This document shows positions 11,739 to 32,448 of a stretch of DNA of 64,000 bases, piece after piece. Origin of the DNA: an uncultured Bacilli bacterium (GTDB lineage: Bacteria > Bacillota_I > Bacilli_A > RFN20 > CAG-449); contig CANRDP010000001.1 in assembly GCA_947629415.1 (NCBI GenBank), forward strand, positions 11,290-75,289, in the 5' to 3' direction. The notes under the pieces are model-generated. The model was not told the DNA's origin and searched no databases. It worked only from the letters and a program-made list of their open reading frames with translations. The position numbers and the translations under genes were made by a program. Every line of letters begins with the position of its first letter. Positions within the stretch are counted from its first letter, which is position 1.

Positions 11739-11904
11739 CTATATATAAAATTTATCAAAATATTTTAAATTTTCAAGATGAGAAATAAAACAAAGGAAAA
11801 TCCGTTTGTATATTTTTTTATTTTTGGTAAGAAGAAAAAAATAATATCAAAAAAAATCGATGCTTTTATTGAAAGGGGACATGAAAAAAAATTAATCAAA
11901 AATA

Positions 11905-11933
11905 TTGACAATAAAAAACGAAAAGAATATGTT
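11905..11933 (+). promoter_or_regulatory. Promoter of the SGNH-lipoprotein operon
   Basis: TTGACA at 11905-11910, a 17-nt spacer, TATGTT at 11928-11933. Confidence 0.35.
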
Positions 11934-11939
11934 AGAAAT

Positions 11940-12000
11940 GTAAGTGAAAGCACTTACAATTAATTTTTAAGGATATTTATGAACTATGTTCGGATATACG
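11940..12000 (+). promoter_or_regulatory. Bipartite conserved operator or leader motif, copy 1
   Basis: GTAAGTGAAAGCACTTAC (7-bp inverted repeat with a 4-nt centre) lies at 11940-11957, 6 nt after the -10. TTATGAACTATGTTCGGATATACG lies at 11978-12000. Near-identical copies occur at 15090-15149 and 20012-20067. Confidence 0.55.
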
Positions 12001-12063
12001 GATTAATTGATATCTTTTTGTTCTGTTGTTCATAAATGCCATGAAAGGATTAGGAAAGAAAAA

Positions 12064-13161
12064 ATGAAAAAAAGATTATTAGTTTTATCGTTAGCAGGTG
12101 TCGTGCTTTTCGGATGCAATAATGAAATTGTTGATTCGCAATCTGCAACATCAACGGGGGGGGGTACTTCGTCGGTAGGTACCACTTCACAAAATGCATC
12201 TTCAAGCAGTAATTCAGTAGTATCGGAAGGAAATAGTACTTCATCAAGTTCTTCGGTGTCTTCAAGTTCTTCTGTATCTTCAAGTTCTTCGGAAAGTTCC
12301 TCTTCACAAAGTTCTTCAGAAGAAGCGAAACAACAAGCTACCACAGTTTATCTTTTAGGAGAACAAGTTGCGGCAAAAGTAGATATGAAACCAAGCTCTA
12401 CCAATTATAAGTATTATTATCCAGCTAAGGGATTTGGAGAAACTTTGCCGGATTATTTTAACGAAAATGTAACTTTTAAGAATTTATCTGCGAATCAAGG
12501 CAGCGTTAATTCATATACATTCCCAACTGATGCAAAAACTAGTGAAGGATATAATGATTATGTGGCAAATTTGAAACAAGGAGATTATGTCTTAATTTCA
12601 TTTGGTATTAATGATCGAAAAATAGATACGAGCAAAAATCTGAATGGTGTTGCGTTAGGAACGGAAGAAGGACAATTTCAATATAATTTAACAAAATATG
12701 TAAACGAAGCTAAAAGCAAAGGAGCAACTCCGATCTTATTAACACCTTATGTATCTTATGATAGTAGTAAAAAATATGAAGCAAATAGTAAATATCTTTA
12801 TAACAAAGCAGAAACCAAGGCACACGAAGGAAATTATCCTCAGGCCATTCGCGATTTGGCGGAAGAATTAGATGTTATGTGTATAGATAATACTACTTGG
12901 ACAGCGGATTTATTTAGAAGTGCTCCTTCCGATGAAGACGTTCAAAAGTGGTATTGTTGGAAAAACTCTGAGGCAGATGGAAAACTGATGACAAATACAT
13001 TTAATGCCTATGGCGCACAGAAAATTGGTTATCATATTGCTGATGTATTGAAAAATAGTCAAAATGCTCTAGGAAAGTACATTAAGGATGATATTGAAGA
13101 TCCGACAGAAGCAGAATATTTAATAGCAAATACAGAAAATTATGTTAAAAGTAATAGTTAA
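12064..13161 (+). CDS. SGNH/GDSL-fold lipoprotein, a catalytically inactive paralog (CE12 RGAE-like pseudoenzyme)
   Basis: Lipobox signal MKKRLLVLSLAGVVLFGC followed by a 60-aa Ser-rich linker. It is homologous to the downstream gene, but GDS is replaced by GEQ (VYLLGEQVAAK) and DGTH by DGKL, so the nucleophilic Ser and the His are both lost. The track start at 12007 was rejected because ATG 12064 has an RBS. Confidence 0.6.
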   Translation: MKKRLLVLSLAGVVLFGCNNEIVDSQSATSTGGGTSSVGTTSQNASSSSNSVVSEGNSTSSSSSVSSSSSVSSSSSESSSSQSSSEEAKQQATTVYLLGEQVAAKVDMKPSSTNYKYYYPAKGFGETLPDYFNENVTFKNLSANQGSVNSYTFPTDAKTSEGYNDYVANLKQGDYVLISFGINDRKIDTSKNLNGVALGTEEGQFQYNLTKYVNEAKSKGATPILLTPYVSYDSSKKYEANSKYLYNKAETKAHEGNYPQAIRDLAEELDVMCIDNTTWTADLFRSAPSDEDVQKWYCWKNSEADGKLMTNTFNAYGAQKIGYHIADVLKNSQNALGKYIKDDIEDPTEAEYLIANTENYVKSNS

Positions 13162-13179
13162 TAAAAACAAAGGAAAAAT

Positions 13180-14910
13180 ATGAAAAAAAAGAAATTACTT
13201 GTTTTATCATTGACGAGCTTTGCTCTATTCGCTTGTGGAAATACAGGAGAAACGAGTGCAACAACATCCTCTGTTGCATCATCTTCAGTTTCTTCAAATA
13301 GCGAAAATGACAGTAGTTCTCAAACGAGTTCATCCGTTGAACCATTAAAGGCTACGACATTGTATATGATTGGTGATTCCACTTGTGCGAATTATGACTT
13401 AGCGACAAAAAATACAACGTATTACTACCAAATTCAAGGTTTCGGAACAACAATCAAAGATTATTTCAAAAAAGAAGTAACGGTTAAAAATCTTGGTGTT
13501 GGTGGTGCTTCTACAAAGAGTTTCCCAACGGAAGATAAGTCGAAAGAAAATTATGCGGAATTTAAAAATAATGTAAAAGCAGGGGATTATGCGATTATTA
13601 CTTTTGGGCATAATGATGAAAAGAAAACAGCTGTTGGTACACAGCTAGGAACGATTGCAGATACAATTACAAGCGATACGTTCCAAGGATATCTTTATTC
13701 CAATTATATTAAGGTATGTCTTGATGCCGGTGCTACACCGATTCTTGCTACACCTATTGCGCGTTATGATAGCAAAGGAAATTGGGAAGAAGGCACTAAG
13801 TACTTACATGTAATGACGGAAGATTCAACTTTCAATGCAGGGGATTATGCTCAAGCTATTCGTGATGTGGCTGAAAAATATTCCCTAACTTGTATTGATA
13901 CAACCAAAATGACAGGAGATGCTTTAAGAGCCCTAGGAGCGGAAGAGGGTAAAAAATGGTATGGTTGGCCAACTTCCACATCTTATGATGGTACGCATGT
14001 CAATATTTATGGAGCACAACAAGTGGGTTATATGATGGCAAAAACATTGAAGGAATCCACAAATAATTTAGGAAAGTATGTCGTAGATGATTTAAAAGCA
14101 CCGACAGAAGCAGAATATTTAAAACAAAATCCTTCATATGTTGAACCGACATATATAGCACCGGGAGAAGGAACATGGTCTAGCCATTGGAATACGACAA
14201 ATAATTGGCATGGATCTGTTTTCGGAGGAATGAAAAAAAGTAGTTTTGCCAAAGAACTCGATAAATACTCTATCACGGAAAATGGTGGAACATCCGCGGA
14301 TGGAACATTAAGTGTCACTTTAGCAGATACGGATCCTAATTACTCGGGAAGATTGAATTCGACTGCCGACGGAATGGTGATGTATTTCCAACAAATCAAC
14401 AAAAATGATTCATTTACTTTGGAAGCAAGCGTGAAAATCGATGACTTGACGAGTGATGCGGTACGACAACAGCAGAATGCTGTGGGTATTATGGTTCGTG
14501 ATGATATGTATATTGATCAATACATTTCTGGTTTGACTTCTCGTTATGCCGCGGCAGGATATTACGGAACAGCTTTTGATGAAGCCGGATCGTATACATA
14601 TTGTGCTTGGGCAAGAAGATATGATGATACGAATACAACCGAAGGAAAAAAAGATAGAATTAAAGAATCGTATTATCCTAAAGAAAATAGCACGATTGAT
14701 GTAAAGATTGTAAAAAATGATACTTCTGTTCAAACATATTACAAACTAGCTACGGATTCTCAATATCAAGAAGGACAATCTTTTGATACCGATTTAGAAT
14801 TAACAGCTGTGGATTCGGATTATGTCTATGCAGGTCTCTTCCTCTGCGGAGGAGCAGGAATGACGGCAACCTTTACGAATGTGAAGTTAACAATCAATCC
14901 TGTTGAGTAA
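13180..14910 (+). CDS. SGNH/GDSL esterase lipoprotein (rhamnogalacturonan acetylesterase/CE12-like) with a C-terminal beta-sandwich extension
   Basis: Lipobox LFAC. The SGNH blocks are intact: I MIGDSTCANY, II LGVGGAST, III FGHNDEK, V DGTHVN. A C-terminal domain of about 250 aa has unknown function and could be a carbohydrate-binding module (CBM). Confidence 0.6.
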   Translation: MKKKKLLVLSLTSFALFACGNTGETSATTSSVASSSVSSNSENDSSSQTSSSVEPLKATTLYMIGDSTCANYDLATKNTTYYYQIQGFGTTIKDYFKKEVTVKNLGVGGASTKSFPTEDKSKENYAEFKNNVKAGDYAIITFGHNDEKKTAVGTQLGTIADTITSDTFQGYLYSNYIKVCLDAGATPILATPIARYDSKGNWEEGTKYLHVMTEDSTFNAGDYAQAIRDVAEKYSLTCIDTTKMTGDALRALGAEEGKKWYGWPTSTSYDGTHVNIYGAQQVGYMMAKTLKESTNNLGKYVVDDLKAPTEAEYLKQNPSYVEPTYIAPGEGTWSSHWNTTNNWHGSVFGGMKKSSFAKELDKYSITENGGTSADGTLSVTLADTDPNYSGRLNSTADGMVMYFQQINKNDSFTLEASVKIDDLTSDAVRQQQNAVGIMVRDDMYIDQYISGLTSRYAAAGYYGTAFDEAGSYTYCAWARRYDDTNTTEGKKDRIKESYYPKENSTIDVKIVKNDTSVQTYYKLATDSQYQEGQSFDTDLELTAVDSDYVYAGLFLCGGAGMTATFTNVKLTINPVE

Positions 14911-14952
14911 AAAATAAATTAAATCGTAAAAGAAGATGAGAATTTTATGAAT

Positions 14953-14995
14953 AGGCGGTTTACCAATGGGCTAAACCGCTTATTCATTTTTTTCA
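14953..14995 (+). terminator. Rho-independent terminator
   Basis: GCGGTTTA-ccaatgggc-TAAACCGC followed by the T-rich stretch ttattcattttttt. Confidence 0.5.
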
Positions 14996-15028
14996 TTATT
15001 ATTTGTTGCACTTAGATTATAATTAACG
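14984..15028. repeat. 45-nt intergenic element, copy A
   Basis: TCATTTTTTTCATTATTATTTGTTGCACTTAGATTATAATTAACG matches 43930-43974 at about 38 of 45 positions. Confidence 0.5.
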
Positions 15029-15054
15029 CAATTACCACAAAAGAGGATAATTAT

Positions 15055-15083
15055 TTGACTTTCAACCGAATTTGCTTTAAGAT
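15055..15083 (+). promoter_or_regulatory. Promoter of the GH105-like operon
   Basis: TTGACT at 15055-15060, a 17-nt spacer, TAAGAT at 15078-15083. Confidence 0.4.
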
Positions 15084-15089
15084 AAGAAT

Positions 15090-15149
15090 GTAAGTGTAAG
15101 CACTTACAAATTTATTTATACAAACTTATGAACAATGTTCGGATATACG
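15090..15149 (+). promoter_or_regulatory. Bipartite conserved operator or leader motif, copy 2
   Basis: GTAAGTGTAAGCACTTAC at 15090-15107 lies 6 nt after the -10. TTATGAACAATGTTCGGATATACG lies at 15126-15149. Confidence 0.55.
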
Positions 15150-15173
15150 AATTTGTGCAAAAGAGGAGAGTAG

Positions 15174-16373
15174 ATGAAATTCTTGGAAAAAGAAATTGAA
15201 ATGAACCTGGAATCATATATTACGGATTTATGTATTCGTTCTACTTATGAAAGACCTCTTTGGAATCAGGAAATATTGATGGGATTAAAAAAACCCGGTT
15301 GGAATTATATTGATGGTTGCATGTTCAATGGGTTATTAAGTCTTTATGAGGAGAATCATAATGATAAAATTATCGAATATATTGATCATTATATATCTCC
15401 ATTGATTGATGAAAACGGATATATAAAGATTTATTATTACAATAATTATAATCAATATACTGAAGAAGGACATGATTCGGATCCATGCAATGAAGGAAAA
15501 GTTCTTTTTACTTTATATGAAAAAACGCATAAAGAAAAATATCGTAAGGCAATTGAATTTCTTCATAAACAAATCGAAGAATTACCGAGAATCCAAGGAA
15601 ATTTTTGGCATAAAGAAAAATATCCCAATCAAATCTGGCTGGATGGATTATATATGATTCAACCTTTTTATGCTATGTATGAAAAGAAGTTTAATTGTGA
15701 AAGAAATTTCAATGATATTGTTTATCAATTAGAAAATTGTTTTGATTTGACCTTTGATAAAAAAACTTCTTTAATGATGCATGGATATGATGGAAATTAT
15801 TTAGATAGCAAAGAAAAGATGATATGGTCTAAAGAAAAAAACGGGCAATCAAAGATTGCTTGGCTCAGAGCTTGCGGATGGTATGAAATGGCTCTTGTGG
15901 ATACTTATGAATATATCAATCAACCAAGATTACAAAGTAAATTAAAAAATCTGTTACAAATTACAATCGATGGATTGATGAAGTATAAAGTAAAAAATAC
16001 GGATATGTTCTATCAAGTCATTGATAAAAAGAAAAAAGCAGGAAATTATTTTGAAACTTCCGGATCACTCATGATTGCATATGCGATTTTAAAAGGGTGT
16101 CGACTTAAGATGCTGACGAAGCGATATCAAGAAATGGGATTACGTATCTTCCGCGGAGTACTGAAAAAATATTTTTATAGGGGAAAAGATGATAAATTTC
16201 ATTTGGGAGGTATATGCATTGGGGCAGGGCTATCGGCGTCGAAAACCGATCGGAATGTTGGAACATATCGAATGTATATTTCTCGAAAAGTGGTTCAAGA
16301 TGATGGAAAAGCCATTGGACCTCTGATGATGGTATTATCAGAAATACATAGAATGGAAAAGGAGAGTGTATGA
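15174..16373 (+). CDS. Glycoside hydrolase family 105/88-like (unsaturated rhamnogalacturonyl/glucuronyl hydrolase), cytoplasmic
   Basis: 399 aa with no signal peptide. The (alpha/alpha)6 Glyco_hydro_88-type motifs WNYIDGCMFNGLL, IWLDGLYMIQPFYAMY, HGYD and AWLRACGWYEMALVDTYEY resemble YteR/YesR and UGL. Confidence 0.55.
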   Translation: MKFLEKEIEMNLESYITDLCIRSTYERPLWNQEILMGLKKPGWNYIDGCMFNGLLSLYEENHNDKIIEYIDHYISPLIDENGYIKIYYYNNYNQYTEEGHDSDPCNEGKVLFTLYEKTHKEKYRKAIEFLHKQIEELPRIQGNFWHKEKYPNQIWLDGLYMIQPFYAMYEKKFNCERNFNDIVYQLENCFDLTFDKKTSLMMHGYDGNYLDSKEKMIWSKEKNGQSKIAWLRACGWYEMALVDTYEYINQPRLQSKLKNLLQITIDGLMKYKVKNTDMFYQVIDKKKKAGNYFETSGSLMIAYAILKGCRLKMLTKRYQEMGLRIFRGVLKKYFYRGKDDKFHLGGICIGAGLSASKTDRNVGTYRMYISRKVVQDDGKAIGPLMMVLSEIHRMEKESV

Positions 16374-17890
16374 TGAAAAAACGATTCTTATTTTTAACGG
16401 GAGTATTGTTATCTCTTTGTGCCTGTGGGGGAACGAATTCCGAGATCCCCGAATCGCATCTTCGATTTAATAATATTGCAATCCGCGAATCCAAACTTGT
16501 AGCCGGTGCCATTGATGTTTTTGTTGAAACACTGGATAAAGATGTCGATATCTATTATCTTTTTGTGGATCATGAGGCAAAAGCACCTGCAGTTTCTCAA
16601 ATCATAGAGGGAAAAGACTATGATGGGGTGAAAGTATTGAGTTATGGTTCCGAAAAAGATATGGTTTATAAAACAGTCACCGGTTTTGATGAATTGGCAT
16701 GGATTGATTTTTATTGTGTACTTCAACAGGAAAATAAAATTTCGGATATCTATTCGACAAGCGTTATGACATTAGATGCTAAAGGCGTAGAAGATAAAGG
16801 AGATGGTACATTAGAAAATCCTTATCGTATATACACTGTAGAAGATTTAGAACAGGTAGGAGCAGAAAGTAGTACATTAAGTGCTTATTATGAACTTCAA
16901 AATGATCTGGATTTGAGTGCTTTTTACGGAGAAGAAAAAAAATCCTTTACACCTATAGGGACGCAAACGGGATCTGCGAAGGCATTTAATGGATCGTTTA
17001 ACGGAAAAGGATATACGATTTCCAATCTTTATATTAATTCAACTTCCGAATCTACAGGATTGTTTGGACAATTAGGTGCAGACGGAGTAATTTCTAATCT
17101 AAATATTGAAAATGCAAAAGTATATTCCACACAACAACGTACGGGTATTGTTGTAGGATACTCCAAGGGTACTGTGGCTAATATCAATGTAATCAACGGA
17201 ACGATTCATGGAACAAGAAAAGTCGGCGGTGCCATCGGAGATGTTTATGAAACAGGTCTTTGCAATCGTATTTTTGTAAAAGATACTTATGTCAAAGGAA
17301 CCGGTGATGATGTCGGTGGTTTAATCGGATGTGTTGATGCTACGGCAGGAGATACAAATCCTATTGAAGTTAAAAATAGTTATGCTATAGCTACGGTAGA
17401 AGGAACTAAGTATGCCGGGGGATTCATCGGATATGCCCGATGCATGCTTATTGATGGTTGCTATGCAATGGTAAATATTACCGGTACAGAAGGTGTCGGT
17501 GCTTTTATTGGAATGGCTCAACATCGTAGCGGTTCTCCGGTTCAACCGAAAGTTTCGAATTGCTTTGCTTTAAAAGGGCATGCCGAAGGAACATCGAATG
17601 CGGGAAAATTCTTTGGTAATTTTTCAACTTCCAATGGAGGTGTAGATACTTCAAAGATTTATTATAGTCAGATTACTCTTACTGCACCAACGGATAAAAC
17701 GGGTAATTATGGCCAGGAAATCACTTGGTTTAATTCTAGTAATGAATTGAAAGCATGGATAGAAAATACACAAAATATTCAACTGGATTTTGAATATTCT
17801 TGGGAAATTCAGGAAAATGCTTTGCGACCTACTCTGAAAAATTCGAAAGCATATGATGACGGAGTCACGATGAGCATAGGAGGAGAATAA
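16370..17890 (+). CDS. GLUG-motif right-handed beta-helix lipoprotein
   Basis: Lipobox LSLCAC. Conserved module GDGTLENPYRIYTVEDLEQVG...FNGSFNGKGYTISNLYINS, followed by repeated GG(L/I)(I/A)G turns (VGGAIGDV, VGGLIGCV, AGGFIGYA, VGAFIGMA). A paralog lies at 35246-37018. Confidence 0.5.
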   Translation: MMKKRFLFLTGVLLSLCACGGTNSEIPESHLRFNNIAIRESKLVAGAIDVFVETLDKDVDIYYLFVDHEAKAPAVSQIIEGKDYDGVKVLSYGSEKDMVYKTVTGFDELAWIDFYCVLQQENKISDIYSTSVMTLDAKGVEDKGDGTLENPYRIYTVEDLEQVGAESSTLSAYYELQNDLDLSAFYGEEKKSFTPIGTQTGSAKAFNGSFNGKGYTISNLYINSTSESTGLFGQLGADGVISNLNIENAKVYSTQQRTGIVVGYSKGTVANINVINGTIHGTRKVGGAIGDVYETGLCNRIFVKDTYVKGTGDDVGGLIGCVDATAGDTNPIEVKNSYAIATVEGTKYAGGFIGYARCMLIDGCYAMVNITGTEGVGAFIGMAQHRSGSPVQPKVSNCFALKGHAEGTSNAGKFFGNFSTSNGGVDTSKIYYSQITLTAPTDKTGNYGQEITWFNSSNELKAWIENTQNIQLDFEYSWEIQENALRPTLKNSKAYDDGVTMSIGGE

Positions 17891-17891
17891 A

Positions 17892-19904
17892 ATGAAAAAG
17901 ATATGGAAAAAAGGTTTAATTATTGTTTCATTGACAACGATACTTCCTTTCGTGTCTTGTAACGCAAATCAAGAAAATTCGAATGCTTCTACTTCGGAGA
18001 ATACAAGTGAATCAACGGAAGTAAAAACAAATTTTGAAATTGTTAAAGAATTTATGGATTCATTTTCCATTGATAATTCGGATGCGATTATTCAAAATAT
18101 TTATTTGCCGAAAAAATTTGCTTTGGAAGGAGTTGTCACATGGCAAAGCAGTGAACCGAAAGTTATCACCAGTGAAGGTCATGTGACACGAAATAAGGAA
18201 AAAGATGTTCCGGTTACTTTAACGGCTATTGCTATGTTAGGATCTACAAGAGAACAACGAGTGTATCATGTAGTAGTAAAAAAAGTAAATGAAACTGCCG
18301 AAGGCAAAATTGATGAAGCGATGTCTCAGTTTACTTTACTGGAAAACAACACGATTGACCGCGATATTATGGTTCTTCCTCGTGTCACAGATATTAATGG
18401 CGTTTATATTACTTGGGAAACTTCCGATGCTTCCATTATTGATTTAAAGGGAAATGTTTATCGGGGGAATGAAGAAAAGAAAGTGACTTTGACTGGAACT
18501 TTCTCTTATGGAGAATATCGTAAGAAAAAATCCTTTGAAATCGTTGTACAGACAAAGGCCGACGACAGTATTCCTGTGATCGATGAAAATGATTCTCGAA
18601 TTTTAAATAAAGTGTATGTCGCCAGTGTCGTGGATATTGTTACCGCGGGATTGGATGCTAGACCAGGTGATGCTATTATCTTAAGAGATGGTACTTATAT
18701 GAATGTGGAGTTTAATATTGAACGCTCCGGCACAGCAGAACATCCTATTTTCATTTTTGCCGAACATCCTGGAAAAGTGATTTTAAGTGGAGAATCAAGA
18801 ATCAATATTCTGGCAGATTATGTTATTGTCGCAAATTTCCGATTTGAAAACGGCTATCCTTCTAAAGATAGTGGTGTGGTTAATCTTGAAGGAAATCATC
18901 TGCGCTTTACAAACAATGTTATCAAAGAATACGAAATCCATGAAAATGATTACAAATGGTTATCTTTAAGAGGAAGATTTCATGAGATCGATCGAAATAC
19001 TTTTGATGGCAAAACGACCGGAGGATCTTTGTTAACCATTTGGAGAGATGATATGTTCTCTCAGGATCACCACATTCATCATAATCAATTCTTGAATTAC
19101 CAAGAAGCCGGAGGTGCCAATGGATATGAAACCATTCGTGTCGGCACATCTACTTATTCACAAACGGATTCCAATGTTTTGATCGAAAATAATCTATTTG
19201 AAAATATTTCCGGAGAAATTGAAATTATTTCCATTAAATCAGGAAGAACGATTGTACGTAATAATACCTTTAAAACCTGTAAGGGTCTTGTTACCGCACG
19301 TCATGGAAAAAATGATTTGATTGAAAACAATGTCTTTCTTTGTGGGCGTGAAAAAAGTGATGGTTCCATTGAACGTATTGATGATACCGGAGGCATTCGT
19401 ATGTATGATGCCGGACATGTTGTCCGTAATAATTACATGCAGGATGTCGAAACTTCTTCCAACACCCGTGCGGGAATTGTCGTACATTCGGGAGTGAACG
19501 ATTATGGTGATACAACCGTCATGAATCTCCAGTGGACTCCGTTTAATGTCTTGATTCAGGATAATACGATTATTAATAGCCGCAACAGCATTTTGATTGG
19601 AGGAAAATATAGTATTCCGTGCAAAGATGTTACTTTTGATAATAATCTTGTTGTTTCACCAACCTATGGTGCGATACGCTATGATAAAAATCCTGTAAAT
19701 CCCACTTGGATCAATAATCATTTCTATGCACCTACTTACTTAGAAAGTAATAGTGCGTTTAAAGATGTAATAGCTCCCGATTGGTTTTCAACGGCGATAC
19801 CGCAACTGATTAAAGGAGAAAACGGATTATATAAAATAGCAGAAAATTACGGCGCTTCTAATCTCACGGTTCAAACCAGTGAGACTACAGGAACAAATTA
19901 TTAA
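17892..19904 (+). CDS. Polysaccharide lyase lipoprotein with a PL6-like parallel beta-helix and two N-terminal Ig-like repeats
   Basis: Lipobox PFVSC. The motif GEIEIISIKSGRTIVRNNTFKTCKGLVTARHGKNDLIENNVF matches the PL6 (chondroitinase B/AlyP) catalytic region, with the Lys of IKS and the Arg of RHG conserved. Two roughly 90-aa repeats precede the helix. Confidence 0.5.
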   Translation: MKKIWKKGLIIVSLTTILPFVSCNANQENSNASTSENTSESTEVKTNFEIVKEFMDSFSIDNSDAIIQNIYLPKKFALEGVVTWQSSEPKVITSEGHVTRNKEKDVPVTLTAIAMLGSTREQRVYHVVVKKVNETAEGKIDEAMSQFTLLENNTIDRDIMVLPRVTDINGVYITWETSDASIIDLKGNVYRGNEEKKVTLTGTFSYGEYRKKKSFEIVVQTKADDSIPVIDENDSRILNKVYVASVVDIVTAGLDARPGDAIILRDGTYMNVEFNIERSGTAEHPIFIFAEHPGKVILSGESRINILADYVIVANFRFENGYPSKDSGVVNLEGNHLRFTNNVIKEYEIHENDYKWLSLRGRFHEIDRNTFDGKTTGGSLLTIWRDDMFSQDHHIHHNQFLNYQEAGGANGYETIRVGTSTYSQTDSNVLIENNLFENISGEIEIISIKSGRTIVRNNTFKTCKGLVTARHGKNDLIENNVFLCGREKSDGSIERIDDTGGIRMYDAGHVVRNNYMQDVETSSNTRAGIVVHSGVNDYGDTTVMNLQWTPFNVLIQDNTIINSRNSILIGGKYSIPCKDVTFDNNLVVSPTYGAIRYDKNPVNPTWINNHFYAPTYLESNSAFKDVIAPDWFSTAIPQLIKGENGLYKIAENYGASNLTVQTSETTGTNY

Positions 19905-19914
19905 CTCACCTTTT

Positions 19915-19934
19915 CCCTCTTGAAAAATAGAGGG
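19915..19934 (+). terminator. Weak terminator-like hairpin
   Basis: CCCTCT-tgaaaaat-AGAGGG with a poor U-tract. Confidence 0.25.
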
Positions 19935-19977
19935 ACCTCCTTTCTAGTTTACCAAACCCTTTTTGAAGATAGGATAA

Positions 19978-20005
19978 TTGACAAAAATGGTGGATATGCT
20001 AGAAT
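19978..20005 (+). promoter_or_regulatory. Promoter of the transporter and lyase operon
   Basis: TTGACA at 19978-19983, a 16-nt spacer, TAGAAT at 20000-20005. Confidence 0.45.
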
Positions 20006-20011
20006 GGAAGC

Positions 20012-20067
20012 GTAAGTGAAAGCACTTACAAATTTTTTAAAGATATATCCGAACTTTGTTCGGATAT
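20012..20067 (+). promoter_or_regulatory. Bipartite conserved operator or leader motif, copy 3
   Basis: GTAAGTGAAAGCACTTAC at 20012-20029 lies 6 nt after the -10. A perfect 10-3-10 palindrome ATATCCGAAC-TTT-GTTCGGATAT lies at 20045-20067. Confidence 0.6.
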
Positions 20068-20102
20068 ATGGAAAAGTATTCAGAATTTCTTGAGGAGGAT
20101 GG

Positions 20103-20657
20103 ATGGATTTAAAAAAAGCAGACTTGATTATCTTTTCGTTTTTATCAATATTATTTGAATTTTTATCAAGCTATTTCTTCAATTTTCTGAATAGTGGATT
20201 TATCTTAAGCTTTTCCTTGTTGATTTTTCTTATTATGGCTCTTCGATGGGGAATAATGGGAATTGTACCTTTCTTACTTTCTGCGCTTCCATTAATTGCA
20301 ATGGAAAAGTCCATGGAATTATGGCAAAGCATTCTCTATTATCTTGTTGCGAATGTTTTCGCGGTAATTCCCATAGGTTGCTATACTCTTTTTTGCAAAG
20401 GGAAGAGTAGAAATGTGATGATTCAATCACCGGTATATCTTATTTTATTTTCTTTAGCGACATTTCTCAGTTTAGCTATTGGAAAATGGATTGCATGCAT
20501 CATCATAAATCAAGATGTTGCATCAATTGGAGGATATTTTATTTCTATGATATTTACGTATATTTTGACCATTCTTGTTTTATACGCATTATCAAGATTA
20601 AAAAATTCTATTGTAGCGGATATGGATTCTTATAGAAATGATGGAGAGGAGGTGTAA
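20103..20657 (+). CDS. Integral membrane protein, possibly a YesL/DUF624-like accessory to the CUT1 ABC transporter
   Basis: 184 aa with about 5 TM helices, first gene of the operon directly upstream of LplB/LplC-type permeases. The family assignment is a context-based guess. Confidence 0.3.
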   Translation: MDLKKADLIIFSFLSILFEFLSSYFFNFLNSGFILSFSLLIFLIMALRWGIMGIVPFLLSALPLIAMEKSMELWQSILYYLVANVFAVIPIGCYTLFCKGKSRNVMIQSPVYLILFSLATFLSLAIGKWIACIIINQDVASIGGYFISMIFTYILTILVLYALSRLKNSIVADMDSYRNDGEEV

Positions 20658-20659
20658 TC

Positions 20660-21625
20660 ATGAATGATATGATAAAGATGAGAGAACCCAAAGGTAAAAA
20701 AATTCTTAAAGGAATCAAAAAGGAATGGCAGTTATATCTTTTACTTATTCCCATTATTCTTTGGTTTTTGTTCTTTGCTTATAAACCCATGATTGGTTTA
20801 ATTGTCGCTTTTGAGCGTTTTGAACCTGCAGAAGGAATTTTCGGCAGTGATATGCGAGGTCTTTCGAACTTTGTCAACATTGTTACAGGTGTTAACCGAG
20901 AAGCATTTTGGGGAGCCTTTAGAAATACATTCATCATTAGTTTATATGGATTGGTTTTTGGATTTCCCATACCAATAATTTTGGCGCTTTTATTCAGCGA
21001 AATCAGAAGTGACGGATATCGAAAGATTTTGCAAACCATTACTTATCTTCCTCATTTTCTTTCTGAAGTTACCATTACGGGTATTGTCATTACCTTGGTC
21101 TATAGTGGAGTGAGTTCTACAGGTATTGTTGCTCAACTGCTTTATTCCCTGAATCTCGTACCTGCGGGAACGAAAATCATTGAAACGCCAAACTATTTTC
21201 GACCAATGTATATCATTACCGGTATCTGGAAAGAATCGGGATATAATTCTATCGTCTATTTTGCGGCAATCATGGGAATTTCCCCTGTCATGTATGAAGC
21301 CTTAAAAGTAGATGGTGGAAATAAATGGCAGGAAATCCGTTATGTTACGCTTCCTGGAATGGCCCCTACACTCATCATCATGATTATTATGAGAATAGGT
21401 CGTATGTTATCTGTCGGTTATGAACGAGTGTTGTTGCTCTATCATCCGAATACCTATGTTACCGCGGATGTTTTGTCTACTTTAGAGCAAAGAATCGGTA
21501 TTGGTACCGGTTCAAATCAAGGTCTTGGTTCGGCTATCGGTATTTTTAATTCCGTCATTGGTTTTGCTTTGGTTATCAGTGCCAACAAAATCTCACGACA
21601 GATTTCAAAGACCTCACTATGGTAA
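20660..21625 (+). CDS. Carbohydrate ABC transporter permease, LplB/YtcP/YesP family (CUT1)
   Basis: N-terminal ..YLLLIPIILWFLFFAYKPMIGLIVAFERF.. is typical of LplB. The EAA-like loop is EALKVDGGNKWQ. Confidence 0.75.
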   Translation: MNDMIKMREPKGKKILKGIKKEWQLYLLLIPIILWFLFFAYKPMIGLIVAFERFEPAEGIFGSDMRGLSNFVNIVTGVNREAFWGAFRNTFIISLYGLVFGFPIPIILALLFSEIRSDGYRKILQTITYLPHFLSEVTITGIVITLVYSGVSSTGIVAQLLYSLNLVPAGTKIIETPNYFRPMYIITGIWKESGYNSIVYFAAIMGISPVMYEALKVDGGNKWQEIRYVTLPGMAPTLIIMIIMRIGRMLSVGYERVLLLYHPNTYVTADVLSTLEQRIGIGTGSNQGLGSAIGIFNSVIGFALVISANKISRQISKTSLW

Positions 21626-21646
21626 GTTGAAAGATTGGAGGAAATT

Positions 21647-22516
21647 ATGGAAAGATCAAGTAAAAGTGAAATCGTATTCCGCGTTTTTTCGTACTTTTTT
21701 GTAACTATTTTTGCCATTTTATGTCTTTATCCCATCATCTATGCTTTCAGCGTATCTATCAGTGGAAAACTTGCCTATGAATCAGGACAGATTGTCTTTT
21801 TCCCAAAGGATTTGCAAATAGAGGCCTATCGAATTGTATTATTTGATAAAGGGTTCTGGATTTCTTATACGAACACACTATTCTATACCATTTTCGGTAC
21901 TGCATGGAGCATGTTCATCTCATTAACCGGTGCATATGTTCTTTCGAAAGACAAATTGTTAGGTAAAAGAACATGGAACTTTTTGCTCGTCTTTACAATG
22001 TGGTTCAGTGCAGGTATGATACCTCTTTATTTAAATTACATGGAATTGGGTGTGGATAACAAATGGGGTATGGTTATTGCTTTTGGTGTACAAGCTTATA
22101 ACATTATTCTTTTAAGAAATGCATTTTCGTCTGTACCGAAAGATATTGAAGAAGCGGCAAGGATGGATGGATCCAGTGAAATACAGATTTTTACAAAAAT
22201 TTATATGCCTATGTCGAAAGCGGCAATTGCCACTGTGACCTTGTTTTATGCAATTAGCCGTTGGAATGGTTATTATTGGTCCAGAATGCTGCTCAGAAAT
22301 TCACAAGAACAGCCACTTCAAGTGTATCTGAGAACGTTAATAGAAAATTATCAAAAACTTTATGATGAATCCGTTGTGGCTGGAAACCTGACTTATGCAG
22401 CCGATAGTTTGGTTTATGCGATCATCATCTGCTCTATCATTCCCGTGCTTGTAGTATATCCTTACATTCAAAAATACTTCACACGTGGCGTGAATTTAGG
22501 CGGAGTCAAAGGCTAG
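21647..22516 (+). CDS. Carbohydrate ABC transporter permease, LplC/YesQ family (CUT1)
   Basis: EAARMDGSSEIQIFTKIYMPMSKAAIATVTLFYAISRWNGYYW parallels the LplC EAA region. ATG 21647 lies 5 nt after GGAGG. Confidence 0.75.
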   Translation: MERSSKSEIVFRVFSYFFVTIFAILCLYPIIYAFSVSISGKLAYESGQIVFFPKDLQIEAYRIVLFDKGFWISYTNTLFYTIFGTAWSMFISLTGAYVLSKDKLLGKRTWNFLLVFTMWFSAGMIPLYLNYMELGVDNKWGMVIAFGVQAYNIILLRNAFSSVPKDIEEAARMDGSSEIQIFTKIYMPMSKAAIATVTLFYAISRWNGYYWSRMLLRNSQEQPLQVYLRTLIENYQKLYDESVVAGNLTYAADSLVYAIIICSIIPVLVVYPYIQKYFTRGVNLGGVKG

Positions 22517-22527
22517 AAAGGAAAACT

Positions 22528-24603
22528 ATGAAAAAAATATTTTTAGGAGCAATTGTTGCAGCATCGACTTTTATTTCGTTAGCATCCTGTAACAATTCCG
22601 AAACACCAAATAGTTCTACATCTATAAGTGTTGATCTTACAACAAATATTGAATTGAAACTAAATATGGCCTACGGTAATAAGGATCAAACCGTGACATA
22701 TCAAAAATCCAATCCATTAACATTACCAGATAATACAGTTATCACTCAGGGTAGTTTGAAACCCTTCTGGAGTTATCTTGGGAAACAAACCAATACGACG
22801 TTTAAAGATATTACCATTCAATCTCAAAAAGCTTCTGAAATGATTACGACCTCTGCTGCAACCGGATTTACCGATGCAGATATTTACGGAGGAAATAGTA
22901 TTGCAGAATCTTTAATGAGCTATGGTGTGCAAAAAAAATTCGCTAACTTAACCGAAATGATGAATCAAGGATTGATGCCTCATGTGAAGGCATATTTAGA
23001 TGCAAATCCAAGTTTCAAATCGGCTATTACAGCTTATGATGGAAATATCTATCATCTTCCGTATATTGCCGAAGTCGGTGAATTTGCTCGTGATTATCAC
23101 ATGCGTGAAAGCTGGGTAACCAGTTTATTAGATAATACGGGTGGAAAATCATATGATACCGATACAACGCTTACGACATATTATAAAGGATTTTGGGTTG
23201 GAAATAATGCACGTACAGGAAATAACGGCGGAACCGTCACTCCAAAAGAAGGCGTGAATATCACTAAAAAGACAAATCAGAATATCATTACTTTGATGAA
23301 TGCTTTGCCAAGTAAAAATGGACAAGCCTTGGCCGAATGTTTAAAAACATATATTCAGAATAATTATGATTATACAAAGGCAAGCGAACTCTATTTAGGA
23401 GAAAAAGCGGCTTACGATATCGATGAACTTGTCGCTTTATTCCGTGTTATCAAAGCAAATCCAAAATTCTTAACAAGTGGAAAAGCAGATACGGTATGGC
23501 CCTACTTTACAAGACAATCTTCTTATCGAGAAGAATTATTACGATTTGCCACATATTTCGGTGGCGTTCGAGTTCATGGATCCGACTCATATTCTGCACG
23601 ATGGGAAATCGATGCAAATGGTCAAATTCAATATACATATACAAAAGAAGAACTCTACAATATATTGAATTATTTATCCGATTGGAATGCCGAAGGATTG
23701 ATTTTTACCGATACTTATGATTCCAACAATAAGAATAATTTCCGTAATCAACTATATTTTGCCGACAATGCGGAAAATGCGAAATTTGGATTTATGACAT
23801 TTGATTTTACGGCTTCAACTACTGCGGATGGCGGAGCAAATGAACCGGCAAGAGATATCGTTGGTGTTTTGCCTCCTGTATCTAAAGTCAATGGTGTATG
23901 GCAGTATTACATTGATAATTCTCGTGTTATCAAACCGGATGGTTGGGCAATTTCCAATCAATCTAGCGATGCTAAGAAACAAAGAGCTGCCGTAATCTTT
24001 GATTACTTCTTCACAGAAGAGGGTGCGGTTTTACAAAATTATGGTCTACCTCAAATGTTGAAAACAGATGAAAAATTCACCGGTCCTGATGGGAAAGAAG
24101 TACCTGCATATAATGACTGGACCTTACAAACAACAAAAGAAATGGCCAATGGTGACTTATCTACGTTCCTTCGTAATTTTATCGGTGCATTGATGCCTGT
24201 GGGTTATGCTAAAGAAATCGGATTTGAATATCAATATACTTCAGAACGTGGATTCAATGCTTGGAAATTATTGCAAAATTCCACTACGAATATACCTTCT
24301 TATGCCGGTACCGGACTTCAAGGAGATAATCCGAATTACTATAAACTCATTCCACCTGTTTTCTCTTTAACGGAAAGACAAACGGAAACATTACAAAATG
24401 ATACGACAATCAATTCAGATAACTCCTTGTTTGAAGTAATCTTTAACATTATTCGATACAAAACTCGAAATGATGCTCCAGCAAGTGTCAAATTACCTGC
24501 AGATTACAATGCATACTATAAGTTATTCCAAGATGCCGGAATTGAAACTTATATCTCAACGTATCAAGCAGCATATCAAACAATGCAGGCATTAAATAAA
24601 TAA
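22528..24603 (+). CDS. Extracellular solute-binding lipoprotein of the ABC transporter (LplA/YesO-like, enlarged)
   Basis: Lipobox SLASC. The 691-aa family-1 sugar-binding protein follows the two permeases. Confidence 0.6.
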   Translation: MKKIFLGAIVAASTFISLASCNNSETPNSSTSISVDLTTNIELKLNMAYGNKDQTVTYQKSNPLTLPDNTVITQGSLKPFWSYLGKQTNTTFKDITIQSQKASEMITTSAATGFTDADIYGGNSIAESLMSYGVQKKFANLTEMMNQGLMPHVKAYLDANPSFKSAITAYDGNIYHLPYIAEVGEFARDYHMRESWVTSLLDNTGGKSYDTDTTLTTYYKGFWVGNNARTGNNGGTVTPKEGVNITKKTNQNIITLMNALPSKNGQALAECLKTYIQNNYDYTKASELYLGEKAAYDIDELVALFRVIKANPKFLTSGKADTVWPYFTRQSSYREELLRFATYFGGVRVHGSDSYSARWEIDANGQIQYTYTKEELYNILNYLSDWNAEGLIFTDTYDSNNKNNFRNQLYFADNAENAKFGFMTFDFTASTTADGGANEPARDIVGVLPPVSKVNGVWQYYIDNSRVIKPDGWAISNQSSDAKKQRAAVIFDYFFTEEGAVLQNYGLPQMLKTDEKFTGPDGKEVPAYNDWTLQTTKEMANGDLSTFLRNFIGALMPVGYAKEIGFEYQYTSERGFNAWKLLQNSTTNIPSYAGTGLQGDNPNYYKLIPPVFSLTERQTETLQNDTTINSDNSLFEVIFNIIRYKTRNDAPASVKLPADYNAYYKLFQDAGIETYISTYQAAYQTMQALNK

Positions 24604-24614
24604 AAAAGGATTGT

Positions 24615-24638
24615 GGTAGGGGGAGTTTTCTCCCTACC
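24615..24638 (+). other. Intra-operon hairpin without a U-tract
   Basis: GGTAGGGGGAG-tttt-CTCCCTACC. It could be a processing or stability element; it is not a clear terminator. Confidence 0.3.
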
Positions 24639-24666
24639 AATTCCTCATTGATAGTGAGATGATTAT

Positions 24667-25221
24667 ATGAAAAAATTAGTAAAATGTTTCAAATTTCAAA
24701 AAGTGATGTTTGTTGTCCAAATTTTGATGATCGTAATAACTTTTATTTCGGCCTTATCTTTCATGACACAATATGCCAATCTTTTTGGGCTCGAACTTCC
24801 ATTAAATCAAAGTATTATTGACTTTCATAATCATATGCAAAACTTCAATAAAACATGGGTATACCTTTCCATTGTAAGTCTTGTTTCTATTATTGCGATG
24901 TTTTTCTTAGAAACACAAAAAAGAGTTGCTGATCGTTTTGCTTTGATTGTTATGGGTATCTTTATTGCCATTGCTATTGCAACGGCTGTTTATGTTATTG
25001 TCAATACGATGAGTTTATTGCAAGAATATCAACAGGTAGATTTTACTTATATTTATTTGGAAGCTCCGGAATTGGCCGATTATCAATTGCAATTTGAAAC
25101 CTTTTATCTTGTTTTCATCGTTCATATCGTCGCCATTATAACTTTTATAGGATATTTTGTAAGTCTGTTACTTTCTCATATCCTTTATGTAAAAGAGAAA
25201 GGAGAACAAAATGCTCAGTAA
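24667..25221 (+). CDS. Hypothetical polytopic membrane protein
   Basis: 184 aa with 4-5 predicted TM helices and no recognisable motif. Confidence 0.4.
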   Translation: MKKLVKCFKFQKVMFVVQILMIVITFISALSFMTQYANLFGLELPLNQSIIDFHNHMQNFNKTWVYLSIVSLVSIIAMFFLETQKRVADRFALIVMGIFIAIAIATAVYVIVNTMSLLQEYQQVDFTYIYLEAPELADYQLQFETFYLVFIVHIVAIITFIGYFVSLLLSHILYVKEKGEQNAQ

Positions 25222-26008
25222 TCAAGCATTGGAGGAAAAGATCCTTAAGTGTCAGAAAACGATGGACGAAGCCAAAAAAACGGATGATGCCATTGCTTCT
25301 TCTTCTATAGAACATATAGATGAAACACTTCCCAGTCGGATTCAAAAAACTTTAAAGAAAATTCAAGAAAAATATGTATCTGCTAAAAGCGATAAACAAA
25401 AAGAGCAGGCTATGAGCACTTTTCAAATCTATAAGGATAAAGTGGCTTATCAGACAAAAAAAATTTTGGTAAATGCTCGATTTGATATGCATCGTTATGA
25501 AAGCATGAAGGAATGGAATCAACAAGAGGATGATGTTAAAGAAGAACAAAAAATAAATTTGACCTTTTATAAGGCCAATGTATCCAGTTATTGGCTTACT
25601 TTATCTGTTATCCTAGTTACTTTAGTTTATTTGGTTGAAATGTTATCCATGATGGAAAGAACTTTTTGGATTGGTATATTCATTCTCATCAATATCGCCT
25701 TTTTGCTCTTCTTATTTACAGCAGCGATTAAATTAAAGAATTATATTAAACTTTTCAGTTATCTTATATTTGCTTTTGGTATTTATACCATTCTGAGAAT
25801 AGGAGTCATTGTTCCTTTTATCTTGAATGTATCTCTTTTACCAACTGCGGATGATGCGAATTTTATGGCTAAAATAGTAATCATTCTGGTCAATATTTAT
25901 TCTTGTATTGTTTCTTTTTATATAGGTATTTCCTCTTTAAGAAAAGTGAAAAAACAAGAGCAATATATCAAAGAAGGTAAAATTACCTTCCATCAATTGT
26001 CAAAGTAG
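25211..26008 (+). CDS. Hypothetical membrane protein with a charged N-terminal cytoplasmic domain
   Basis: 265 aa: about 110 aa of K/E-rich soluble sequence, then about 4 TM helices. It overlaps the upstream gene by 11 nt. Confidence 0.4.
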   Translation: MLSNQALEEKILKCQKTMDEAKKTDDAIASSSIEHIDETLPSRIQKTLKKIQEKYVSAKSDKQKEQAMSTFQIYKDKVAYQTKKILVNARFDMHRYESMKEWNQQEDDVKEEQKINLTFYKANVSSYWLTLSVILVTLVYLVEMLSMMERTFWIGIFILINIAFLLFLFTAAIKLKNYIKLFSYLIFAFGIYTILRIGVIVPFILNVSLLPTADDANFMAKIVIILVNIYSCIVSFYIGISSLRKVKKQEQYIKEGKITFHQLSK

Positions 26009-26016
26009 GTAATCAT

Positions 26017-27111
26017 ATGGCAGAGATTATTTTAAAAAATGTAAATAAAATTTATCCGAATGGAGCACATGCTGTTTATGACTTCAATTTGGAAATCAAA
26101 GATGGTGAATTTATCGTTTTAGTCGGTCCTTCCGGGTGTGGTAAATCAACGACGCTTCGCATGATTGCCGGTTTAGAGGGAATCACGTCCGGAGATCTTT
26201 ATATTGATGGAGAAAGAGTCAATTTGTTGGCACCTATGGATCGCGATATCGCTATGGTCTTCCAAAACTATGCTCTTTATTACAATATGTCGGTTTACGA
26301 TAATATGGGCATTTCTTTGAAATTGCGTCATGAACAGAAGAATATTATTCATAAAACCGTCAAAGATATGGCGATGCGTTTTGATTTGACGGATTATTTG
26401 AATCGGTTGCCATCCAATTTATCCGGTGGTCAAAAACAGCGCGTAGCTTTAGGTCGTGCGGTCGTTCGCAATCCGAAAGTTTTCCTCATGGATGAGCCTT
26501 TAAGCAATTTGGATGCAAAACTTCGTGAAAAAACTAGAAGTGAAATTGTTAAACTGCAAAAAGAATTAAAGACTACAACGATTTATGTCACACATGATCA
26601 GGTGGAAGCTATGACAATGGCCGATCGCATTGTCGTGATGAATGAAGGATATATTCAGCAGATTGCTACGCCTTTTGATCTTTATAATTATCCGGACAAT
26701 ATGTTTGTTGCGGGATTTATCGGAATGCCCAATATTAATTTTATTGAAGGAACAGTTCACGATAATTATTTCCATTTTGATGGCATGAAAGTGGCTATTG
26801 ACGAAGCTTCCATTCCAAAATTAAAGGCCTATGAAAATAAAGAAGTCATCATGGGAATTCGTCCGGAGTATATCGAATTCGGCGAAAAGGCTTATGAATC
26901 TTTCCCGGATGCAATACTGGATCTTCCGATGATTCATAAAGAATTTCTCGGGGATGAATACTATGTGGAATTGAAACTTCCGTCACAGGAAATTACCGCG
27001 CGTATCAGCAGTGAATTTCATCTGACTTCCCAAAACTTAAAAGTGGTATTCAATATGAAGAAAGTTCACTTCTTTGATAAAGAAACAACGAAGAGAATTG
27101 TGGAGGAGTAA
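26017..27111 (+). CDS. Sugar ABC transporter ATP-binding protein, MsmK/MsmX/MalK type (copy 1)
   Basis: Walker A GPSGCGKST, signature LSGGQKQRVALGRA, Walker B FLMDEPLSNLD, and a C-terminal MalK-like regulatory/TOBE domain. Confidence 0.85.
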   Translation: MAEIILKNVNKIYPNGAHAVYDFNLEIKDGEFIVLVGPSGCGKSTTLRMIAGLEGITSGDLYIDGERVNLLAPMDRDIAMVFQNYALYYNMSVYDNMGISLKLRHEQKNIIHKTVKDMAMRFDLTDYLNRLPSNLSGGQKQRVALGRAVVRNPKVFLMDEPLSNLDAKLREKTRSEIVKLQKELKTTTIYVTHDQVEAMTMADRIVVMNEGYIQQIATPFDLYNYPDNMFVAGFIGMPNINFIEGTVHDNYFHFDGMKVAIDEASIPKLKAYENKEVIMGIRPEYIEFGEKAYESFPDAILDLPMIHKEFLGDEYYVELKLPSQEITARISSEFHLTSQNLKVVFNMKKVHFFDKETTKRIVEE

Positions 27112-27113
27112 GT

Positions 27114-27635: not shown

Positions 27636-27638
27636 TTC

Positions 27639-28169: not shown

Positions 28170-28170
28170 T

Positions 28171-32113: not shown

Positions 32114-32448
32114 AAGAAATTCAAAATTACTTTTTAGACAAAGATATTGTCTTTAAAGATGCTGATCCGGGTGTGCAAAGAAAAATCTTGGCACATAACG
32201 AATCTTTAATGGTTTGCCGTTTGCATTTTGAAAAGGGAGCTGTCGGTGCTTTGCATCAGCATCCTCATACACAATGCACCTATATTATTTCGGGGAAATT
32301 CGAATTCAATATTGGAGGCAAAAAAATGATTTTGGGGCCTGGCGATTCTACTTATAAAGAACCCGACGTGATTCACGGCGCCGTTTGTCTTGAAGAGGGA
32401 GAATTGTTAGATATATTTACACCAGAAAGAAAAGACTTTTTGAAATAG
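32110..32448 (+). CDS. Cupin-2 protein, KdgF-like unsaturated-uronate linearising enzyme
   Basis: 112 aa with the cupin metal motifs HQHPHTQ and PDVIHGAV. Its size and its context among lyases and an SDR match KdgF. Confidence 0.5.
   Translation: MKEIQNYFLDKDIVFKDADPGVQRKILAHNESLMVCRLHFEKGAVGALHQHPHTQCTYIISGKFEFNIGGKKMILGPGDSTYKEPDVIHGAVCLEEGELLDIFTPERKDFLK

Follow-up and report, generated by a model that had tools for sequence, protein, structure and literature searches.

Sugar operons of Firmicutes can be under the dual control of a local repressor and a catabolite-responsive element (cre), as in the xyl, ara and kdg operons of Bacillus subtilis. The hinge helix of the catabolite control protein CcpA inserts at the CpG step of cre, and in a set of more than 50 B. 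subtilis cre sites this central CpG and G3/C14 alone are invariant and essential (PMC3074128). Unlike other Mollicutes, Acholeplasmatales have been reported to carry a CcpA homologue and HPr kinase, and the predicted site of the Acholeplasma laidlawii homologue is TTGTAAGNNCTTACAA, with the centre left unspecified (PMC5138195, Suppl. Table 4). A flexible CcpA site of Clostridium acetobutylicum, crevar, has the form NxTGTAAA-Yx-TTTACAMx; in the crevar site sol-20, 6-nucleotide (nt) arms flank an 8-nt spacer, and the innermost arm position is the least critical (PMC5263246). Here, we analyse a 64,000-nt stretch of contig CANRDP010000001.1 from an uncultured Bacilli bacterium (the window), in which a promoter module with two candidate regulatory sites, element 1 and element 2, stands ahead of three operons of a uronate-polysaccharide locus.

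A block of ~75 nt, retrieved through repeat families D6 and D11 followed by alignment, is present three times in the window, at 11928-12003 (copy 1), 15078-15152 (copy 2) and 20000-20073 (copy 3). A consensus scan placed a sigma-70-type promoter directly 5' of each copy. Including this promoter, the modules cover 11905-12003, 15055-15152 and 19978-20073, all on the + strand and each ahead of a uronate-polysaccharide operon. On balance, and with moderate confidence, we favour the reading that they are three paralogous promoter-operator modules co-regulating the locus, each combining a promoter, a putative CcpA-type palindrome at +1 and a putative three-box operator of the IclR type.

In copy 2, the promoter (15055-15083, + strand) consists of a -35 box TTGACT (15055-15060), a 17-nt spacer and a -10 box TAAGAT (15078-15083), matching the consensus at 9 of 12 positions. 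The promoter of copy 1 (11905-11933, + strand) has TTGACA, a 17-nt spacer and TATGTT ending at 11933, and that of copy 3 (19978-20005, + strand) has TTGACA, a 16-nt spacer and TAGAAT ending at 20005. The promoter-to-element geometry of copy 2 is repeated in copies 1 and 3 and in the relatives L008, L017, L018 and L019. Copy 1 carries element 1 at 11939-11958 (TGTAAGTGAAAGCACTTACA) and the boxes of element 2 at 11981-12002, and precedes a GDSL-esterase operon. Copy 3 carries element 1 at 20011-20030 (cGTAAGTGAAAGCACTTACA) and the 16-mer of element 2 at 20058-20073, and precedes an ATP-binding cassette (ABC) transporter operon. GC-rich hairpins with a T-run, at 14953-14995 and 19914-19935, close the upstream operons just ahead of copies 2 and 3, which supports three separate transcription units; the second of them is the terminator-like hairpin that follows the operon of copy 2. 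As a separate observation, AGGATAATT is found at 15044-15052 and 19971-19979, just 5' of, or overlapping, the -35 box of copies 2 and 3. It is missing from copy 1 and unconserved among relatives, and could be a UP-like element or could reflect mere common ancestry of copies 2 and 3.

Element 1 has the general form TGTAAGTG-NAAG-CACTTACA, with C as the first base in copy 3. Its conserved unit is an 18-20-nt palindrome, (T)GTAAGTG-NAAG-CACTTAC(A), at 11939-11958, 15089-15108 and 20011-20030; in copy 2 (15089-15108, + strand) this is the 20-bp palindrome TGTAAGTG-TAAG-CACTTACA. Scanning the window with the 18-mer GTAAGTGNAAGCACTTAC retrieved three exact sites (6 matches over both strands), compared with 0.04 expected. 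In all three copies, element 1 begins exactly 5 nt 3' of the -10 hexamer. Transcription in A. laidlawii, the closest relative that has been studied, mostly starts 6 nt after the -10 box, at G or A (PMC5138195), so that the predicted +1 is the G of tGTAAG (11940, 15090 and 20012) and element 1 would cover the predicted start site. Repression is classically exerted from such a placement. The cre of amyE is likewise positioned on the start site (PMC3074128).

An earlier note on this DNA had described a bipartite motif within 15055-15149, composed of a cre-like 14-mer, TGTAAGCACTTACA, and a 24-mer, TTATGAACAATGTTCGGATATACG, in the second of several copies. Both sequences are present as described, the 14-mer at 15095-15108 with 0 mismatches and its centre at C15101 and A15102, and the 24-mer at 15126-15149, in one of three copies of the block; that range also holds the promoter of copy 2, and element 2 runs on to 15152. 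As had been claimed, the 14-mer is a single mismatch away from the ideal cre TGTAAGCGCTTACA, and this one deviation of copy 2 falls on the central CpG. It begins 11 nt 3' of the -10 box, and its counterparts lie upstream of the GH88, esterase and ABC-transporter operons. However, the 14-mer is not itself the conserved unit. It is made up of the final two bases of the left arm, all four of the centre and the whole right arm, and is thus an off-centre sub-reading of the longer palindrome. The centre of copy 2 does read TAAG rather than AAAG, T15097 being its sole difference from copy 1 in element 1. With this substitution, the two half-sites of its inner 14-mer pair perfectly; otherwise, copy 2 is a minor variant of the same element. 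The view that copy 2 is more cre-like holds only against the predicted Acholeplasma motif: gTGTAAGCACTTACAa of copy 2 agrees with TTGTAAGNNCTTACAA, itself a computational prediction, at 15 of 16 positions; the count for copies 1 and 3 is 14 of 16. The Bacillus consensus TGWAANCGNTNWCA has W at position 3 (PMC3074128), and by that standard copy 2 comes no closer to cre than the other two copies do. A functionally distinct, more cre-like copy 2 was therefore rejected.

Orthologous loci were gathered by means of the GH88 protein and of the first gene of the ABC operon, and an alignment was made of ten leaders from at least six related genomes, the three window copies included. In a close clade (L007, L008, L017, L018 and L019), the whole module aligns from the -10 box to element 2, and spacing is almost fixed. 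Element 1 of L017 reads cGTAAGTG-AAAG-CACTTACA, identical to copy 3, and that of L008-2 reads TGTAAGTG-TAAC-CACTTACA. In L007-1 and L019, it takes the form TGTAAGTG-AAAA-CGCTTACA, which has a true CpG centre, so that a CpG-centred TGAAAACGCTTACA occupies the position of element 1 in L007 and L019. The length of the element varies, being 18 nt in L007-2 (TGTAAGT-CTAG-GCTTACA) and 21 nt in L008-1 (TGTAGGCG-TAAAG-CGCTTACA); the spacer between the outer arms is 8 nt in the window copies, 6 nt in L007-2 and 9 nt in L008-1. In the ABC-operon leader of L018 (84-103), element 1 is TGTAAGTG-CTTC-CACTTACA. Here the centre is inverted and the 14-mer of canonical spacing lies on the opposite arm, which suggests that the palindrome centre may have flipped through recombination between the arms.

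The more distant relatives (L009, L010 and L013-L016) lack the extended palindrome. Instead, cre-like 14-mers with a CpG centre, read by eye, occur at varied positions of the orthologous promoters. TGGAAGCGCTATTT in L015, TGAAAGCGTTATTA in L014 and TGGAAGCGCTATTA in L013 each lie 8-10 nt after the -10 box; these three sites are without the invariant C14 and failed the strict consensus scan. TGAAAGCGTTGTCA and TGACAACGTTTTCA lie over the -35 boxes of divergent promoters in L016, and both fit the cre consensus, and GTAAAGCGTTTTAC abuts the -35 box in L009. Across the family, ABC-operon promoters combine a cre-like site near the promoter with 16-mers of the IclR type. This two-part pattern favours a dual mode of control, in which catabolite repression acts alongside induction specific to the pathway. 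Further examples were sought by a profile search of genome contigs with the first gene of the ABC operon, which retrieved only the Anaeroplasma bactoclasticum metagenome-assembled genome (MAG) already in the set; by a metagenome protein scan, which returned nothing; and by a metagenome DNA-pattern scan, which returned one unrelated chance hit, L020.

Considering its half-sites, a CcpA-type reading of element 1, as the earlier note had put forward, is reasonable on sequence grounds. The half-sites TGTAAG/CTTACA are those of TTGTAAGNNCTTACAA, the fit of copy 2 to this motif is the 15 of 16 positions given above, and versions with a CpG centre exist in relatives. Sites with no more than two mismatches to TGTAAGCGCTTACA number three in the window, compared with 0.09 expected. 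The G3/C14 pair and the flanking T2/A15 are kept in all copies, as TGTAAG...CTTACA in copy 2 and TGAAAG...CTTACA in copies 1 and 3.

Several points weigh against this reading. The CpG (C8 G9 of WTGNNARCGNWWWCAW) is replaced by CA in all three copies, and a scan of the window for the exact cre consensus, WTGNAANCGNWNNCW, matched none of them. The motif TTGTAAGNNCTTACAA was drawn computationally from three operons only. Over the ten leaders, conservation is higher in the outer left arm TGTAAG, set at 8-nt spacing, than in the inner left half-site, so that the 14-mer probably makes up only part of the site; a standard dimer of the LacI type is not expected to span arms 8 nt apart. The crevar mode, for its part, rests on electrophoretic mobility shift and reporter data from one study in another bacterial class (PMC5263246), and its core TGTAAA does not match TGTAAG; we take it as a lead. 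Genes for CcpA, HPr and HPr kinase are all absent from the 64-kb window. Lastly, cre-like intergenic hits in ~206 kb of related sequence, an amount too limited for telling a global from a local regulator, occur only at the promoters of this polysaccharide locus.

The last of these points makes a dedicated LacI-family regulator as compatible with the data as a global CcpA. Element 1 would in that case be the operator of a pathway-specific regulator encoded outside the window, a LacI-family or other dimeric helix-turn-helix repressor, and no global catabolite control would be involved. The palindrome and the cre-like sites were found solely at the promoters of this locus in all sequence examined, and the 8-bp arms of element 1 are perfectly symmetric and conserved. 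To our knowledge, all LacI-family operators share cre-like half-sites. Nevertheless, neither the locus nor the 10-kb flanks in relatives contain a second regulator gene, the arm spacing varies among relatives (6, 8 and 9 nt), and the half-sites fit the motif predicted for the Acholeplasma CcpA homologue. We consider such a dedicated regulator rather improbable.

Element 1 might also act as RNA. In some Bacillus mRNAs, 5' stabilisers guard against 5'-end-dependent decay. A transcript starting at the G of tGTAAG would carry a 5'-flush 7-bp hairpin, GUAAGUG-NAAG-CACUUAC, which could be a stabiliser of this kind or the target of an RNA-binding regulator; the cre resemblance would then be ancestral or coincidental. 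Such a role, which could coexist with a function of the DNA, appears unlikely to us, yet is the main rival of the favoured reading. The hairpin is kept in 10 of the 10 leaders despite element lengths of 18, 20 and 21 nt, with 97.5% of cells paired, and is predicted at -6.3 kcal/mol (z = -3.3). Its stem shows a single compensatory change and, on the sense strand, four G.U pairs. Pair 20-28, which holds the toggle at the cre centre, is U-A in six leaders, U.G in three and C-G in one, and never C.A. Pairing that tolerates G.U would explain the G/A toggle at this position, and the pattern is as predicted by an RNA or palindrome constraint, not by a strict CpG requirement. The offset to the -10 box is constant at 5 nt, in keeping with the usual Acholeplasma start 6 nt after this box at G or A. 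The outermost pair is altered only in copy 3 and L017, by a T-to-C change at -1, outside the predicted RNA, and the loop sequence is unconserved, being CUUC in L018.

However, covariation in the stem is not above the shuffled control (202/500). Five of the eight pairs are invariant; the arms are thus conserved in sequence, an indication of sequence-specific recognition. They coincide exactly with CcpA-type half-sites, and a perfect DNA palindrome gives identical pairing counts. Element 1 has no Rfam match, and the cre-like sequences found at its place in distant relatives form no hairpin. An intrinsic terminator or attenuator at element 1 was rejected, as the stem is weak (-6.3 kcal/mol), A residues stand before the T-run and the hairpin starts at the predicted +1.

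A further reading combines DNA and RNA functions. Element 1 may be a lineage-specific, CpG-less, split catabolite site of two tandem left half-sites and one right half-site, acting both as a DNA operator with non-canonical spacing and as a 5' RNA stability hairpin; we find this doubtful. If this reading is true, it would indicate a drift of CcpA recognition in wall-less relatives of Firmicutes, and the contested crevar mode, in which CcpA binds across a flexible spacer, would gain independent support. In its layout, element 1 shares 6-nt inverted half-sites and a variable spacer with crevar, and sol-20 has the same 6+8+6 geometry. It differs in its arms, which are TGTAAG/CTTACA and not TGTAAA/TTTACA, the difference falling on L6/R1, where a crevar mutant kept slight binding, and in that the palindrome of element 1 extends inward and that of crevar outward.

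Operators of IclR-family regulators have been described by two consensus groups: group 1, GKTYCRYW3-4RYGRAMC, with a subgroup NGTYCRAW4TYGRACN and an older form GTNCG-N5-6-CGNAC, and group 2, TGRAACAN1-2TGTTYCA (PMC8222616). Sites of three boxes in alternating direction are found in 32 IclR orthologous groups, where one pair of boxes is of group 1 and the other of group 2, with PcaU, PobR and HmgR as precedents. Tandem sites 18-22 nt apart are found in 94 groups, and site centres lie mostly 20-80 nt before the start codon (PMC8222616). Element 2 fits a three-box operator of this family and would be bound by the IclR-type regulator encoded in the same locus; it need not be left as unexplained, as it was when only cre was considered.

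Element 2 has the form (Y)GAAC, 3 nt, GTTCG, N-ATAT-N, CGRA, with boxes that alternate in direction. In copy 2 (15130-15152, + strand), these are GAAC at 15130-15133, AAT, GTTCG at 15137-15141, G-ATAT-A and CGAA at 15148-15151. The 24-mer TTATGAACAATGTTCGGATATACG spans boxes 1 and 2 and ends two bases before the end of box 3; its second copy is at 11977-12000, with one mismatch and 0.00 expected. A 16-mer, GTTCGGATATACGAAT (15137-15152), closes element 2 of copy 2, and in each of the three copies the 16-mer has one mismatch to GTYCRNWWWWNYGRAC. In copy 3, element 2 is a perfect palindrome with 12-bp arms, ATATATCCGAAC-TTT-GTTCGGATATAT. The 16-mer centres lie 30, 38 and 68 nt before the start codons, that of copy 2 being ~30 nt upstream of the ATG at 15174. 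The generic IclR consensus is not enriched across the window (4 hits, 3.06 expected), a result that tells against the operator assignment; at this chance level the count is unusable as evidence of enrichment, and support comes from placement, repetition and conservation.

In relatives, the perfect 16-mer GTTCGTATATACGAAC is present in L007 and L018, and 16-mers of this type cluster at these promoter regions in every relative. An exact GAAC-N3-GTTC pair is found 5' of the 16-mer in 8 of the 10 leaders; L008-2 keeps the pair as CGGAA-N3-TTCCG, and in L019 the spacing is disrupted. This inner pair was also tried as the main unit and rejected: relatives have the 16-mer GTTCG-N6-CGAAC on its own, and it is perfect in two leaders with a shifted inner pair, L019 and L008-2. 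Tandem 16-mers 19 nt apart occur in L013 (1814 and 1833), L009 and L014, and copy 3 has a degenerate upstream 16-mer at this distance of 19 nt from the main one. In L009, L013, L014, L015 and L016, 16-mers stand as tandem pairs 19 nt apart, 5' of the -35 box of near-consensus GH88 promoters; in L009 (9911-9945), L013 (1814-1848) and L014 (9912-9946), they lie just 5' of that box, and the leaders are very short. The IclR-type operator is thus located upstream of the promoter in those relatives and in the leader in the window. Because the same sites lie upstream of promoters, element 2 is best read as a DNA operator and not as RNA.

The same observation bears on the idea that the whole ~75-nt block is a structured leader RNA, that is, a riboswitch or attenuator made of hairpin 1, the U-rich tract and alternative GAAC/GTTC hairpins. 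A terminator-like scan flagged element 1 and its T-rich tail in 3 of the 3 copies, and element 2, with its three boxes, could fold into either of two mutually exclusive hairpins. Compared with shuffled sequences, the leaders are the more stably folded (z = -3.0 to -4.4), and RNAalifold recovered both palindromes. However, L009 and L013-L016 have the 16-mers 5' of the -35 box of promoters close to consensus, a placement incompatible with an RNA element. In addition, the fold of element 2 differs in each of the three paralogous leaders, the covariation term in RNAalifold is just -0.63 kcal/mol, and the T-run is set off from the stem of element 1 by 2-4 A residues. An Rfam scan of 11850-20200 at E <= 5 gave chance hits only, and a scan at the gathering threshold found only the L10 leader (1501-1613). 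With no Rfam hit, no significant covariation and no common fold of element 2, the riboswitch or leader RNA was rejected, and we consider it very improbable.

The candidate binder of element 2 is the IclR-family regulator gene at 34290-35171 (+ strand; Pfam HTH_IclR and IclR_C). Its best NCBIfam hits are BhcR and KdgR, both under their cutoffs. Its orthologues are 254-261 aa long and form a small clade, with seven clusters at 55-76% identity and then a drop to 38%. Given these lengths, and an 88-nt overlap of the open reading frame (ORF) with the gene before it, translation probably begins near 34398. The ABC operon of copy 3, which starts at ATG 20103, appears to run on to this gene; no other promoter module was noticed in 20103-35171, an interval for which no dedicated promoter scan was made.

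The mechanism we propose builds on what was observed: the sequences of the two elements, their repetition and fixed placement with respect to the promoter, their conservation among relatives and their agreement with published motifs. From these, we infer the proteins that bind, the effectors, and repression as the direction of control. Element 1 would provide the cre-type half-sites TGTAAG...CTTACA together with an inner left half-site, TGWAAG, which yields a 14-mer of canonical spacing. A CcpA-like repressor of the LacI family, encoded elsewhere, would sit on element 1 when a preferred sugar is available and block initiation. Element 2, ~40-60 nt downstream of the start, would be the operator of the IclR-type repressor encoded in the locus, which may act there as a roadblock or as a tetramer. 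A breakdown product, for example a keto-deoxy-uronate resembling 2-keto-3-deoxygluconate (KDG), would then free the repressor from element 2.

The gene content of the locus, which extends from ~12,000 to 43,900 according to Pfam annotation, comprises GDSL esterases, a GH88/GH105 hydrolase, a PL6/chondroitinase-B-like lyase, an ABC transporter, heparinase-II/III-like and alginate-lyase-like proteins, a short-chain dehydrogenase, beta-helix proteins and one regulator, of the IclR family. No LacI-family gene was found in the 64 kb. The closest named homologues are from Anaeroplasmataceae and Anaeroplasma bactoclasticum MAGs, and the window matches metagenome contigs of gut type. Directly 3' of copy 2 is a GH88/GH105-type unsaturated uronyl hydrolase (15174-16373, + strand; PF07470, E = 6e-65), with the Shine-Dalgarno sequence GAGGAG at 15163-15168. 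Its operon runs to 19904 and further encodes a 506-aa unknown protein and the PL6/chondroitinase-B-like lyase. The GDSL esterase of the copy 1 operon is the ORF at 12007-13161, for which the gene call on the identical contig L001 indicates ATG 12064 as the likely start.

Other features of the locus were noted in passing. Tandem paralogous beta-helix genes (NosD/Beta_helix; 37030-39135 and 39260-41719) correspond to repeat families D2, D3 and D10, at ~73% DNA identity, and two MalK-type ABC ATPase genes (26017-27111 and 42731-43873) to family D1, at 70%. Between the heparinase-like and short-chain dehydrogenase genes, a small cupin-like ORF (32110-32450, + strand, 112 aa, under the 120-aa cutoff of the ORF list) has only a weak NCBIfam hit and could encode a KduI-like uronate isomerase. 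A direct repeat of 57 nt (44019-44075 and 44142-44198; 74% identity, 123 nt apart) lies within AT-rich sequence upstream of the gene at 44185. Its second copy enters the ribosome-binding site and ATG, and the repeat therefore looks like a duplicated promoter-leader segment. Near the window start is an L10 leader (Rfam RF00557, 1501-1613, + strand, 45 bits, just over the gathering score). From ORF sizes and this leader, which lies between the L1 and L10 genes, we take the genes at the window start to be rplA, rplJ and rplL. Pfam annotation of the identical contig places rpoB and rpoC near the window start.

The regulation proposed here is of an ordinary kind, and it has no bearing on a major open question. 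What is unusual is the absent CpG, the nested or split half-sites and the potential 5' hairpin. The modules offer a concrete, testable regulatory model for a polysaccharide locus of an uncultured Anaeroplasmataceae gut bacterium, in a group with almost no experimental genetics. Their natural variants (CpG or CpA centres, spacers of 6, 8 and 9 nt and the inverted loop) could be used for probing how strictly CcpA-type proteins outside Bacillus require the CpG and the spacing.

With the cre/CcpA system of Firmicutes, element 1 shares the half-sites TGTAAG/CTTACA, a position on the start site of a sugar-catabolic operon and, in relatives, CpG-centred or canonical versions. It differs in having CA in place of CpG and in that the 14-mer is nested within a 20-bp palindrome whose outer arm is the conserved one. 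Element 2 resembles IclR operators and the KdgR-type control of uronate and pectin use in its 16-mer, the opposite box 3 nt upstream, the tandems at 19 nt and centres 30-70 nt before the start codon; as in those systems, the regulator gene lies within the regulated locus, and the pathway is one of uronate-polysaccharide breakdown. However, the half-site is GTTCG here, compared with the A/T-rich TGAAAC of enterobacterial KdgR, and the regulator is a generic member of the IclR family, known from its sequence. As in the dual control of xyl, ara and kdg in B. subtilis, a putative pathway operator and a putative catabolite site share one promoter, whereas here both sites form a cassette of fixed spacing that has been copied before three operons.

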